IMG/VR virus record: IMGVR_UViG_3300037312_000757
Length of the DNA stretch: 64,000 nt
Origin: a virus
Lineage: Duplodnaviria; Heunggongvirae; Uroviricota; Caudoviricetes
Strand: one strand, 5' to 3'
In this document: positions 10,797-64,000 of the stretch, piece by piece
Layout of the letters: each line of letters begins with the position of its first letter
Position numbering within the stretch: the stretch's first letter is position 1
The notes under the pieces: generated by a model
Told to the model about the DNA's origin: nothing
What the model saw: only the letters and a program-made list of their open reading frames with translations
Database searches by the model: none
Made by a program: the position numbers and the translations under genes

Positions 10797-11083
10797 TTGA
10801 GCTCCCGGCATGCTGCGGTGATTGCCATCAGGATCTTCGGATCTTTTGTGTACGGAAGCAGACCTGAAAGGAAGTCGACAAACGTATCTTGCGACGCGGT
10901 GATACGACGTGCAAGATCATGAAATCCGGCCTTGAATTCTGCTTCGTCTTCTGTGCAGTATTCGCAGACGCCAGGGTCGCCCTGGATCACTTTGGTGAAG
11001 ACGGGGCAGTCGGGAGCACTGTATTTGCAACCGTGTGTTGCGCAACAGTGCGTCTTATGCACGCCGTACTTAGCTTGATCCAC
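10793..11083 (-). CDS. Cys/His-rich hypothetical protein
   Basis: HCCATHGCKY...CPV...CEYC; first gene of a cassette. Confidence 0.65.
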   Translation of the reverse strand: MDQAKYGVHKTHCCATHGCKYSAPDCPVFTKVIQGDPGVCEYCTEDEAEFKAGFHDLARRITASQDTFVDFLSGLLPYTKDPKILMAITAACRELK

Positions 11084-11088
11084 ATGAA

Positions 11089-11140
11089 CCTCCGTTCGTT
11101 ACCATACTCACATGGTAACTTCATATGAACAAAGGATCAA
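11089..11140 (-). promoter_or_regulatory. Early promoter/RBS unit (degenerate stem)
   Basis: TTGATC-17-TACCAT, dyad TTCATATGAA, GGAGG. Confidence 0.75.
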
Positions 11141-11598
11141 CAGTGTTTCAGGATGAATGCTACGAGGTCAGAATCATTGGTGGGGAGCTTTTCATATCCC
11201 CATTCACCGTCATCACGCTCGCACCATACGCGAATTGGTAAGTCGGCCCAGAACGTTTTCAGTTCTTTGGTCGTGTTGATCATACCAGGCAAAGTTGGTT
11301 CAAACTTGATTAGTTCCGCACCAACGAACTGGAAACTACGTGACGAGAACAGCTTGCCATGTGTATTGTACATCTTCTTCCACAACTCAGGACACATCAC
11401 ACCACTCAACGCCAAACTGCACGGTTTTGACTTTGTCCTCGCCAAGGTTTGATAATGGATCATGATCGGAATATCCATTATCCACTTGTCACCTATGCGT
11501 TGAATGCTGTAGAAACGGCGATGATGCTTGAGCGATCGCATGTCGTTCTTCATGCGCTGATCTGTGTAACGATAGTCCCAGTATTTCAGCTTATTCAT
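11137..11598 (-). CDS. Hypothetical protein
   Basis: ORF track. Confidence 0.6.
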   Translation of the reverse strand: MNKLKYWDYRYTDQRMKNDMRSLKHHRRFYSIQRIGDKWIMDIPIMIHYQTLARTKSKPCSLALSGVMCPELWKKMYNTHGKLFSSRSFQFVGAELIKFEPTLPGMINTTKELKTFWADLPIRVWCERDDGEWGYEKLPTNDSDLVAFILKHC

Positions 11599-11884
11599 TT
11601 GATAGTATCAAGGCGATCGCGTCAGCGTCTTGACCAGGCAACAGGATAACTGGTTCGTTTTGATCGTTAAAGGCAACACGAGTGATCGTGAAGCCTTTCG
11701 TATTCATCCATCGTTGCGTGTACGACAACGCTTCTTTAAGCGTTGTACAGTTGAACTCGCATTGAAATTCGTTCTCCAAATAGCAGACGCGCCAGCCTGG
11801 CGTTAGATCGTCTACTTCATATCCGTCATTGGCGTCAAATTGGAGGACGTGGAGTTCTTTTTCTTTTTCTGGGTATCGTGTCAT
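11591..11884 (-). CDS. Hypothetical protein
   Basis: ORF track; overlapping operon. Confidence 0.6.
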   Translation of the reverse strand: MTRYPEKEKELHVLQFDANDGYEVDDLTPGWRVCYLENEFQCEFNCTTLKEALSYTQRWMNTKGFTITRVAFNDQNEPVILLPGQDADAIALILSNE

Positions 11885-12267
11885 GTGTATGTCAAAACCG
11901 TTTGCAACTCTACTAGCTCGTTGCGCTCGATTTTAACACACTCATTGCCATCCTCGGGGTTCGGATAAACCACGATTTGGCGATCGATCCACGAACCTTG
12001 CAGCTCTTTCACGATCATGAACGCGTCTTTGAAGAACTCGTACGTATCAGGAATGCTGCCATTCGGGAACTCGCGTCGATTCAAGCCGACGATACCATTC
12101 GACTGCACGAACGCAGATAAACCCTCCCTACCATTTTCCATAGGGACGATCACGCTCCATTCCTTCTCGTTGACCTTGATGATGTTGTAGGTTGATTCGG
12201 GAGGGATCTGAGGGGCACCCCAGTTGAATGCCCGCAGCTTGACGAAGTGTTTCTTTTTCTTTGCCAT
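11881..12267 (-). CDS. Hypothetical protein
   Basis: Likely start MAKKKKHF at 12267. Confidence 0.6.
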   Translation of the reverse strand: MAKKKKHFVKLRAFNWGAPQIPPESTYNIIKVNEKEWSVIVPMENGREGLSAFVQSNGIVGLNRREFPNGSIPDTYEFFKDAFMIVKELQGSWIDRQIVVYPNPEDGNECVKIERNELVELQTVLTYT

Positions 12268-26070: not shown

Positions 26071-26601
26071 TTAGCCGTACTGCTTGAGTGCTGCGAGCTG
26101 TTCGGGCGTCAGAAGCTTCTTTGCTTCCTCCGCAAGGGCACGCTGACGCTTCTTTTCGTCAGCTTCTTGCTGTAGACGGCTGAAGCGCTCGACTACAGCA
26201 TCGACTTGCCACTGTTCGGATTCAACGGACAGAACGTCGCGCTCGAGATTTGCATCGCGCCAGTCTTCCATATCTGCCGCACGCTGGCGACCGAACGTGA
26301 ACACAACCCCCGGCAGGCCAGCTTCGCTACGCATGTAGGCGTAGGATTCGGGCAGGCTTGCATATACATCGCACATGACGTCCATACCCTTGTTCTCGAG
26401 TTCCTTGCACTGAACCATCAGGCCGAACAAGAGTGCCGGCATTTCTGCACGGCGCGCCGCCTTCGCTTCTGCTTCGCGACGCTCACGTTCAGCACGGTCC
26501 GCTTCGCGATCGGCTGCGGTTTTGCGACCCTTGCGAGGTTCGCCCGTCAGCGTTTCCAGCGGAGTTGCGGTCGTTACATGCTTGCGTTCAACTGCTTTCA
26601 T
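26071..26601 (-). CDS. Hypothetical protein
   Basis: Single-gene cassette. Confidence 0.7.
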   Translation of the reverse strand: MKAVERKHVTTATPLETLTGEPRKGRKTAADREADRAERERREAEAKAARRAEMPALLFGLMVQCKELENKGMDVMCDVYASLPESYAYMRSEAGLPGVVFTFGRQRAADMEDWRDANLERDVLSVESEQWQVDAVVERFSRLQQEADEKKRQRALAEEAKKLLTPEQLAALKQYG

Positions 26602-26605
26602 CTTG

Positions 26606-26664
26606 TTCTCCTTTGTTCATCTACCATGTTCAAATGATAAGTTCATATGAACATGATTGCAAGC
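26606..26664 (-). promoter_or_regulatory. Stem-loop early promoter/RBS unit
   Basis: TTGCAA-17-TATCAT; CATGTTCA/TGAACATG; AAGGAG. Confidence 0.85.
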
Positions 26665-26665
26665 G

Positions 26666-26974
26666 TTATTTGTAGCAGTTCTCGATCTTCGCTTGGATGC
26701 TCTTGATGTACTTGTCTTGATCCTTGCTGTCAACTGTGACGTCTACCGCATTGTAGCTGCTCATCGAGCCGACAAACACATACACCGTGTCCTGATAGCG
26801 ACTGAAGCCAGTCACACGGCGACCATCGACCGTGGCGCGCATCGAGACTTGGATCCAGCACGGTGGAATGGACGAAGCACTGGCGCTATCACCAAAGGAC
26901 GGGTTGACTGCTGCACCCTTCGCCATAGCGTTTGCGGAAAGGACGATAGCGAGCATGGCGATGATTGTCTTCAT
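26666..26974 (-). CDS. Secreted hypothetical protein
   Basis: Signal peptide; promoter TTGTAA-16-TACCAT with arms AGCCATATGG/CCATATGGCT at 26996-27029. Confidence 0.65.
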   Translation of the reverse strand: MKTIIAMLAIVLSANAMAKGAAVNPSFGDSASASSIPPCWIQVSMRATVDGRRVTGFSRYQDTVYVFVGSMSSYNAVDVTVDSKDQDKYIKSIQAKIENCYK

Positions 26975-39561: not shown

Positions 39562-40056
39562 TTATGAGTAGACTGTTTGCAACAGCCAAATCATTTTGTT
39601 GTCAATGTCAGTTAGTCTGCGCATCAACTCATAATCTTCATACGCTTTATCGATAGCTTGTTTCAAGCTTTCAACTTGCGCACGTTCCATCCCTTCGCAT
39701 TTATTATCATATGCTTCACCTAGTTCAAACTGAAGCTTCAGCAATGTCTTTGCCAAACCAAAGAAGTATTCGTTGTCAATCCAAATACCAAAACCAGCTT
39801 TTCGAATAGTCTCAAGCTGTTCTTGATTGTCAATCAAGACAGTGATCCAATATTTTGATGCATTAAACCAGCTTTTGACTGGGCGATAACCAATCATTTT
39901 TGGAATAGCACGTTCAAGCAAGGCGAAGTTCTGTTCTTCTTCTGTCATTTGTCGAGGCCATGACATCGGTTGAACATTGACTATGCTCTGAGCTATAAGG
40001 TTTGGAACCACCTTACGAATCATCGGTAGCATAACCTTCATGTTATCCTGGCTCAT
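39562..40056 (-). CDS. Protein with N-terminal gp23 Gol-peptide-like segment
   Basis: VMLPMIRKVVPNLIAQSIVNVQPMSWP. Confidence 0.65.
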   Translation of the reverse strand: MSQDNMKVMLPMIRKVVPNLIAQSIVNVQPMSWPRQMTEEEQNFALLERAIPKMIGYRPVKSWFNASKYWITVLIDNQEQLETIRKAGFGIWIDNEYFFGLAKTLLKLQFELGEAYDNKCEGMERAQVESLKQAIDKAYEDYELMRRLTDIDNKMIWLLQTVYS

Positions 40057-63259: not shown

Positions 63260-63352
63260 TTGAAATCCTTTGTTAAGTTAGTGAGTGTGATTTTACTGAT
63301 TAATGCGTAGTTGTCAAAATATCAACGGCGTATAGTGAATATGCCGTTTCTG

Positions 63353-63769
63353 TTATTTGATCCAGAATTTATTCTTGTCCGTGTACCACTTTGCGGTGAG
63401 TGTCATTGGCTTATGAGCTGCTGACTTCACTGCCGTCTTGATGACCGAAATGTTAGGCTGGTTGACCTTTGGCTGTACCAAGTCCTTTGGTTGCACCAAG
63501 GCACGCAATGATTGCATGATCTCTTCATCAATGGCCTTTTGAATCTCTTCAGCCATGATATCAGACATTTCACCTTCGAGGTCTTGTCTAAATCCCAGAC
63601 CTGCATCAAATGCGAGACGAAATGCAATTGCGACTTCTTCATCAAAGATATCAAAATTGTGGTAACAGCCACTCTTGTGATATTCGTAATCCGAATAGTC
63701 ATTCTGGCTTTGGAACCAGTCTTTTACTTCCTGGAGAGCTTCTTTGTCTCCCTCAATCCACAGCTTCAT
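63353..63769 (-). CDS. Protein containing two gp23 (major capsid)-like segments
   Basis: DLEGEMSDIMAEEIQKAIDEEIMQSLRAL and ISVIKTAVKS...LTAKW. Confidence 0.65.
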   Translation of the reverse strand: MKLWIEGDKEALQEVKDWFQSQNDYSDYEYHKSGCYHNFDIFDEEVAIAFRLAFDAGLGFRQDLEGEMSDIMAEEIQKAIDEEIMQSLRALVQPKDLVQPKVNQPNISVIKTAVKSAAHKPMTLTAKWYTDKNKFWIK

Positions 63770-63999
63770 TATGGTACTCGAACGTTAATTGCCCCGGTAC
63801 TACCTGGGGGACTTAGTAGTGGTACATATGGCGCATAGAAATAACCAGCATCGACCTTCTGTTCCCCGAATGTAAAACAGTAGCCACGTTTTACGTTATC
63901 GAACGCCAGGAAGAATTCCAATGCCACGTTATCACCCAACACTGAAATGTCATACGTCCACAGCTCACCATCAGACCTATGTTTGTTCAAATCCCAACC
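63769..63999 (-). CDS. 5'-truncated protein ending in a gp23 C-terminal motif
   Basis: DAGYFYAPYVPL; frame is open to the window edge. Confidence 0.6.
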   Translation of the reverse strand, partial: GWDLNKHRSDGELWTYDISVLGDNVALEFFLAFDNVKRGYCFTFGEQKVDAGYFYAPYVPLLSPPGSTGAINVRVP

Positions 64000-64000
64000 A

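Follow-up and report, generated by a model that had tools for sequence, protein, structure and literature searches.

Why would a phage encode, apart from the gene for its major capsid protein (MCP), small genes that carry pieces of that protein? The question is raised by the end of the window (the window being the whole stretch of DNA analyzed, 64,000 nucleotides long), where a sequence-only reading had described two adjacent small genes built from scrambled fragments of gp23, the T4-type MCP. The window is the reverse strand of positions 232518-296517 in a 523,836-bp virus record with direct terminal repeats. The 524-kb genome is that of a soil phage whose DNA is present in rhizosphere metagenomes. 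By capsid protein, its closest cultured relatives are Sinorhizobium phage Phosso (469 kb, 80% identity) and Agrobacterium phage Atu_ph07 (490 kb, 70%); no paper on phage Phosso was found in the published literature. A six-frame scan of the genome with the Pfam Gp23 family (PF07068) placed the sole full capsid gene at genome 117404-118627 (407 aa) and found no second full-length PF07068 gene of the gp24-like kind. The stretch L001:1000-2800 was also seen in a second rhizosphere metagenome (run X2), where it showed no differences and had a Logan word depth of ~11,000-12,000, unusually high for a metagenome.

Two intact, coupled genes carry the capsid-derived pieces

The two small minus-strand genes were confirmed, with ORF B at window 63353-63769 and ORF A running past the end of the window. 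Their features, those of the adjoining DNA and those of a third capsid-piece gene in the window were as follows.

ORF A: window 63769-64000 plus 107 nt past the window end, minus strand; 112 aa, intact
ORF A carrier domain, in-window part: window 63898-64000 (domain aa 1-70), minus strand; paralogue of the ORF B domain
ORF A MCP-derived tail: window 63805-63867, aa 81-101, minus strand; DAGYFYAPYVPLLS at its core; corresponds to MCP 337-357, the hairpin and P-loop together spanning about MCP 337-360
ORF B: window 63353-63769 (genome 232749-233165), minus strand; 138 aa, intact
ORF B carrier domain: window 63596-63769, aa 1-58, minus strand; beta-alpha-beta-beta-alpha, ending in the invariant FRLAFDA
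ORF B MCP-derived segment: window 63470-63622, aa 50-100, minus strand; corresponds to own MCP 184-234
ORF B C-terminal tail: window 63356-63469, aa 101-138, minus strand; predicted to be disordered (pLDDT ~50)
Stem-loop: window 63324-63348, minus strand; directly 3' of ORF B
Near-consensus sigma-70-type promoter for the next gene: window 63290-63317, minus strand; after the stem-loop
ORF C: window 39562-40056, minus strand; 164 aa, residues 7-34 corresponding to MCP 74-101; third capsid-piece gene in the window

The start of ORF A lies at genome 232411, beyond the window; its first 36 codons are outside, and aa 37-112 with the stop codon are inside. This start is found one base after the stop of an upstream unannotated 530-aa gene (TAAcATG), and the start codon of ORF B overlaps the stop of ORF A (TAATG). 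ORF A, ORF B and the 530-aa gene are translationally coupled.

The 530-aa protein had no match in Pfam, PHROGs, NCBIfam or PDB sequences; it contains a DSGGFQ motif, which may recall tRNA-guanine transglycosylase or DpdA. Just past the window end, genome 228870-232409 (L033:4871-8410) holds an HSP20 / AAA_28 / cREC_REC / ClpS block and then the 530-aa protein. On the other side of ORF B, window 63290-63348 consists of the stem-loop and then TTGACA-16-TAAAAT before a conserved 172-aa gene, which ends in a bidirectional terminator. This arrangement is like the "stem-loop plus early promoter" cassettes known from T4-type plastic regions.

The pieces are homologous to segments of the major capsid protein

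Positions 169-198 of the Pfam Gp23 profile matched ORF B residues 63-92 (DLEGEM...SLRAL; E = 8.4e-4, 19.3 bits), and positions 301-326 matched the tail of ORF A (E = 5.6e-4, 19.9 bits), in which the motif DAGYFYAPYVPL is located at window 63817-63852. Compared with residues 184-225 of the phage's own MCP, ORF B was identical at 19 of 42 positions (BLASTP E = 9e-7; shuffle p<2e-4). Alignment of the ORF B family with an MCP profile by hhalign paired ORF B 50-100 with MCP 184-234 at 94% probability (E = 1.3e-7). In the reciprocal search, the B-family profile found the MCPs of this phage, Phosso and Atu_ph07 (E = 2e-6, 1e-6 and 5e-5, respectively). A capsid model of our own, built from 13 MCPs and with reversed sequences as the null (maxima, 7.5-8.3 bits), scored ORF A at 13-23 bits and ORF B at 17-19 bits; the 23 bits of ORF A stand against a reversed maximum of 7.5. 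At the level of segments, the similarity of both pieces to MCP profiles was significant and reciprocal, and the gp23 assignments that the sequence-only reading had made for DLEGEM...SLRAL in ORF B and for the ORF A motif are upheld.

At the level of whole proteins, ORF B (19.3 bits) and ORF A (19.9 bits) fell below the curated PF07068 whole-protein cut-off of 24.4 bits, the real MCP scoring 271.7 bits. The complete HK97 fold (N-arm, E-loop, P-domain and A-domain; ~400-520 residues) is absent from both. Searches of Pfam, PHROGs and NCBIfam with ORF A and ORF B returned nothing except the weak Gp23 matches.

The sequence-only reading had also placed in ORF B a strand of gp23 in reverse order (NISVIKTAVKS..LTAKW). 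This stretch aligned with MCP 162-182, but with a shuffle p of ~0.04; there was no second profile match, and the tail was not conserved in orthologues. The term "scrambled" was not taken as established. The candidate reading in which the whole of ORF B reproduces MCP 124-242 colinearly in miniature was not adopted, being unsupported in 8 of 9 relatives and in profile comparison. The one exception is the ORF B orthologue P0005 (L023:4001-4342), in which residues 14-36, part of the carrier domain, resemble MCP 124-146 (11/23 identical; z 5.7), colinear with the helix match.

Across the 4159 ORFs of the 524-kb genome, only four small ORFs scored above the reversed-sequence null, namely ORF A, ORF B, ORF C (window 39562-40056) and an ORF at genome 299664-300239, and the PF07068 six-frame scan agreed. 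ORF C reached 25.5 bits with Pfam Gp23, above the 24.4-bit cut-off, and was identical to the own MCP at 16 of 28 positions by BLASTP. Of the four orphan gp23 segments counted in the sequence-only reading, the fourth is an A-domain piece in a different gene and not the ORF B strand. This fourth gene (minus strand, 191 aa; locus L039) lies ~3.1 kb before window position 1. Its similarity to Gp23 (profile 219-273; 20.7 bits, E = 3e-4) spans residues 80-136 and covers a helix and a strand of the A-domain. A paralogue adjoins it at genome 299054-299788 (phmmer E = 9e-8).

Adjacent MCP-like pieces in a genome without a second full-length PF07068 gene could be the remains of a frameshifted or decayed second capsid gene (gp24-like) that continues past the window end. 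What lies past the end, however, is the start of ORF A, 107 nt on, after the unrelated 530-aa gene. The pieces are in the wrong order, with a non-capsid domain between them; both ORFs are intact and coupled, and ORF B is conserved as such in relatives; and no further MCP similarity was found nearby in any frame. For practical purposes this explanation, which the sequence-only reading had named as one that would refute its own view, is excluded.

The pieces are retained in related phages at the protein level

An exhaustive HMMER and profile search identified nine orthologue clusters of ORF B, with 26-48% identity. In all nine, the carrier domain is present, FRLAFDA is invariant and the helix retains the gp23 signature AEI..EID.EI. 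ORF B was syntenic in L023 (a different 523,572-bp contig), L024, L027 and L028, the relatives with enough flanking contig, and thus in at least four related phages; there it stands directly after a 500-540-aa gene and downstream of the HSP20 / AAA_28 / cREC_REC / ClpS block. A tblastn search of cultured phages with ORF B gave no match, and the viral contigs searched with ORF B and P0006 contained no related loci.

The orthologue of ORF A in L023 has the same domain, with a short degenerate helix tail in place of the hairpin, which indicates that tails are exchanged between carriers. When ORF A homologues of similar length were searched for, only ORF A itself was found, and no orthologue with the same hairpin-tail architecture. 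Even so, among relatives with enough DNA, L027 alone is without the hairpin/P-loop piece; the others have it, each time on a different carrier or at the opposite end:

L024:4352-4588: 78-aa ORF; z 7.2, p<3e-4
L023:5181-5405: 74-aa ORF; z 6.5, p<3e-4
Phosso gp170: at the N-terminus, ahead of the family domain; p<3e-4

Phosso gp163 lacks the carrier domain and has the spine helix preceded by a basic leader; in the same phage, a 226-aa ORF carries the Gol region. No such capsid-piece genes were detected in Atu_ph07 (490 kb) at the thresholds used, which implies that they are dispensable.

The 14-residue run DAGYFYAPYVPLLS is identical in ORF A and in a divergent gp23 (L008), with third codon positions agreeing at 4 of 14; likewise, 15 residues are identical between the helix of ORF B and that of the own MCP, and only 5 codons are. 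Since third positions are saturated while the peptides are identical, the pieces are old and have been kept at the protein level. A recent copy, gene conversion or a DNA-level homing footprint was rejected on the same grounds.

The ORF A piece is nearer to the foreign gp23 of L008 (16/21 identical) than to the own MCP (10/19); for the other pieces, all MCPs of the clade are at roughly the same distance. Conservation was compared column by column between the ORF B helix and the MCP helix, and the correlation was no better than in shifted controls (rho 0.24, p 0.13). The capsid-piece design is conserved, recurs on different carriers and is kept by protein-level selection.

The carrier domain belongs to an expanded family

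AlphaFold2 predicted the same small beta-alpha-beta-beta-alpha domain in ORF A (pLDDT 81-93) and ORF B (pLDDT 72-83). In the ORF B model the domain is followed by a single long helix (aa 64-91) and a disordered end, and in the ORF A model by a disordered tail (pLDDT <50). By alignment the two domains are paralogous, that of ORF A being matched by the B-family profile at E = 1e-5. Searches of PDB and BFVD with Foldseek and of the ESM Atlas returned generic ferredoxin/ACT/Pcc1-like folds only (E>0.03), together with many small unnamed phage proteins, and no capsid protein was among the structural neighbors of the models.

The B-family profile matched 12 further small ORFs of this genome and Phosso gp170, and an iterated model of the carrier domain raised the detectable members in this genome to 23. 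Both domains are members of an expanded small-protein family of huge phages, defined by a ~60-90-residue domain that ends in an amphipathic helix with the motif D..hAhxF+L[TA][WF] and is detectable by profile in many small ORFs. Typical members of this family, with a C-terminal motif of the D..DAVAFKLTW type, end at the motif, and 21 of the 23 stop ≤14 residues after the domain, whereas ORF A and ORF B alone among the 23 detectable members carry long tails (43 and 84 aa), both of them MCP-derived. The A..F.LAF domain noted in the sequence-only reading does precede both pieces and is paralogous between them; it is a family domain and not peculiar to this pair. ORF A and ORF B are intact, coupled accessory genes that join a family carrier domain to capsid-derived peptides.

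These observations bear on the view that the MCP pieces were captured by recombination and have no capsid role, the amphipathic helix or flexible tail serving the carrier's own function. Such a capture would suit a locus that is a plastic array of small paralogues with gene content varying between relatives, an ORF A tail that is unique to this genome, a helix whose conservation pattern does not track that of the MCP, and the lack of such pieces in Atu_ph07 at the thresholds used. It fits poorly with a gp23 helix signature kept in all nine clusters despite 26-48% overall identity, with the same hairpin on different carriers in three further phages, and with peptides retained while synonymous sites became saturated. 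Further, it is MCP pieces alone, out of the whole proteome, that form long tails on the carrier family. We regard capture without a capsid role as unlikely.

Promoter motifs suggest that the unit is not late

Over the whole genome, ATAAATA was enriched ~20-fold upstream of genes, with a peak 25-30 nt before starts, and it precedes the genes of the head region; its commonest forms are CATAAATA or AATAAATA. It is probably the late promoter of this phage, judging from position and enrichment. The strict T4 late promoter TATAAATA showed no genome-wide enrichment. ATAAATA was absent before the unit formed by the 530-aa gene, ORF A and ORF B, which is preceded by a terminator hairpin and a TTGCGT-18-TATAAT site. 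Neither ORF A nor ORF B is part of the head-gene block; both lie among accessory genes. These motifs suggest that the unit is non-late in expression. They are consistent with the earlier proposal that the two genes are expressed before the MCP.

The pieces correspond to contact elements of the T4 capsid

For residue mapping, the own MCP was aligned to T4 gp23 from solved structures. The ORF B piece corresponds to T4 gp23 about 272-313, a short acidic P-domain helix and the spine helix; the ORF A piece to about 440-460, a P-domain beta-hairpin running into the P-loop; and the ORF C piece to 93-120, the Gol region. ORF A and ORF B map outside Gol residues 93-122.

Section 13 of PMC9546572 describes three clusters of T4 head-length mutations (A268, A275, D285 and D287; T457, R460 and G461; A66, A94 and G97), and assigns all of these sites either to the quasi-threefold contacts between capsomers or to the interface with the scaffold. 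The three pieces include A275, D285 and D287 (ORF B), T457 and R460 (ORF A) and A94 and G97 (ORF C); G461 is one residue beyond the scored range of the ORF A piece, and A268 and A66 are outside the pieces. This overlap is suggestive, and it may be partly a detection effect, because the blocks of gp23 that profiles detect are the best conserved, and these blocks also hold the contact residues and the length mutations.

Proteins that assist in building the phage's own giant head might be expected to show this coincidence with determinants of head length. Acting as chaperones or caps for its capsomers at the quasi-threefold contacts, they would help to set curvature or size for a 524-kb genome. 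The own MCP is 64% identical to MCPs from 280-380-kb phages, and its similarity to those of phages with smaller genomes implies that capsid size must be set by something else. However, the genes are outside the head-gene block and lack the ATAAATA motif, the best match of the ORF A peptide is to a foreign gp23 and not to the own MCP, and at the thresholds used no such genes were detected in the 490-kb genome of Atu_ph07. A role in building the own head is therefore improbable.

Mimicry of capsid lattice contacts as the favored explanation

The explanation that we favor, tentatively, is that the two proteins mimic lattice contacts of the capsid. A small folded carrier domain would display a short peptide descended from a gp23-type MCP, the displayed peptides being lattice-contact elements of the capsid protein from near the quasi-threefold axes where capsomers meet. 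Each peptide may bind the partner of the same stretch of MCP, that is, unassembled gp23-type subunits or capsomer edges, and this binding would cap or divert the growth of the lattice. We lean toward co-infecting T4-type phages as the target, or toward restraint of free capsid protein, rather than toward a part in the virion, because the motifs make non-late expression of the unit seem likely and a foreign gp23 is the nearer match to the ORF A peptide.

Several features were counted for mimicry and would be consistent with it: significant homology to the MCP, synteny, protein-level retention, recurrence, the unusual long tails, an ORF A peptide closer to a foreign gp23, overlap with the head-length clusters and the non-late look of the unit. 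Counted against it were the tails, which are predicted to be disordered or a lone helix, together with a helix whose conservation does not track that of the MCP, the absence of the genes from Atu_ph07 at the thresholds used and an ORF A hairpin architecture for which no orthologue appeared. A full-text search of the published literature found no account of phage genes in which parts of the phage's capsid protein are displayed.

One of the closest known systems is the Gol region of T4 gp23, which activates the e14 Lit protease with EF-Tu. It, too, is a short conserved stretch of gp23, one that is active apart from the rest, and the ORF C piece is exactly this region (T4 93-120). Gol differs in being part of the capsid gene, from which it has been separated only experimentally, whereas the present pieces are separate natural genes with a carrier domain; in addition, ORF A and ORF B carry other regions, the P-loop hairpin and the P-helix with the spine helix.

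Mimicry has a close rival, which we consider somewhat less probable. The proteins could be antagonists or decoys for host factors that recognize free capsid protein (of the Lit/EF-Tu, CapRel, Avs7 and Dsr1 kind) or for EF-Tu itself, with the peptide occupying the binding site of the sensor and the carrier domain blocking activation. The MCP is a widespread immune trigger according to PMC9712102 and PMC13581612, and a 29-residue piece of gp23 (Gol) is active alone with Lit, as cited in PMC9712102. A Gol-region ORF is present in the genome, the peptides are consensus-like and not own-like, and the unit is non-late by motifs and lies among accessory genes. Set against these points, Avs7 wraps around the entire folded MCP in a contact of 3,700 square angstroms (PMC13581612), and a peptide of 20-40 residues is unlikely to out-compete such a contact. 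An early free trigger peptide should moreover fire an abortive system and not block it, and there is no known sensor for the spine helix or the P-loop hairpin.

MicroProteins and dominant-negative fragments, small proteins that keep an interaction element and titrate partners, offer the mechanism that is proposed here for lattice-contact mimicry. ORF A and ORF B retain an element homologous to part of a larger protein, and the retained MCP elements are lattice-contact elements according to PMC9546572. The known cases differ in origin: they derive from transcription factors of eukaryotes or were obtained from engineered libraries of fragments. A search of the published literature found no phage-encoded case of the microProtein type built from a structural protein.

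The internal proteins of T4 that bear a capsid targeting sequence are comparable in that small proteins, otherwise unrelated, have a link to the head through a short address peptide. In T4 this sequence is a signal of 10 residues at the N-terminus; it attaches to the scaffold core, and the head protease removes it. Unlike it, peptides of the ORF A and ORF B type are 20-50 residues copied from the MCP, at either end of the protein, in genes that do not look late; in ORF A and ORF B themselves they are internal or C-terminal, and by motif evidence no late-type ATAAATA stands before the unit.

Capsid-remodelling proteins of satellites (P4 Sid, SaPI CpmA/CpmB and PLE TcaP) are accessory proteins that bind the capsid lattice and alter or block assembly in conflicts between mobile elements. 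Unlike ORF A and ORF B, they are not known to derive from capsid sequence; they act on the helper phage.

If mimicry of lattice contacts is correct, it would represent phage-encoded targeting of capsid assembly or sensing with short copies of MCP contact elements. It would point to the surfaces of gp23 that are open to functional contacts before assembly, and would connect the classical head-length mutation clusters of T4 with sequences found in nature. Peptides usable at once as probes or inhibitors, both of T4-type capsid assembly and of capsid-sensing immunity, would be a further gain. Direct testing is possible, since genes of these kinds (gp163, gp170 and the Gol-region ORF) are present in the cultured Sinorhizobium phage Phosso. 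In a broader and more speculative form, for which we hold out only a slim chance, giant T4-core phages may run a natural peptide-display system, in which trans-dominant gp23 contact peptides made before the late phase would poison the assembly of rival T4-type phages or block host sensors of capsid, with tails swapped as the conflict evolves.

Further small ORFs with possible protein fragments

Two small ORFs, at window 26433-26675 (plus strand; genome 269843-270085) and at genome 355381-355518, are possibly further fragment-carrying genes. Both match residues 256-279 of an unannotated 345-aa protein (genome 331455-332495), with 50-67% identity over 18-24 residues and E values of ~1e-3, near the reversed-sequence null. 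Two other small ORFs match an AAA ATPase (genome 48920-50053, phrog_1297): that at genome 146067-146243 (58 aa) matches its residues 132-160 (E = 1e-3), and that at genome 302330-302524 (64 aa) matches residues 45-77 (E = 7e-6).
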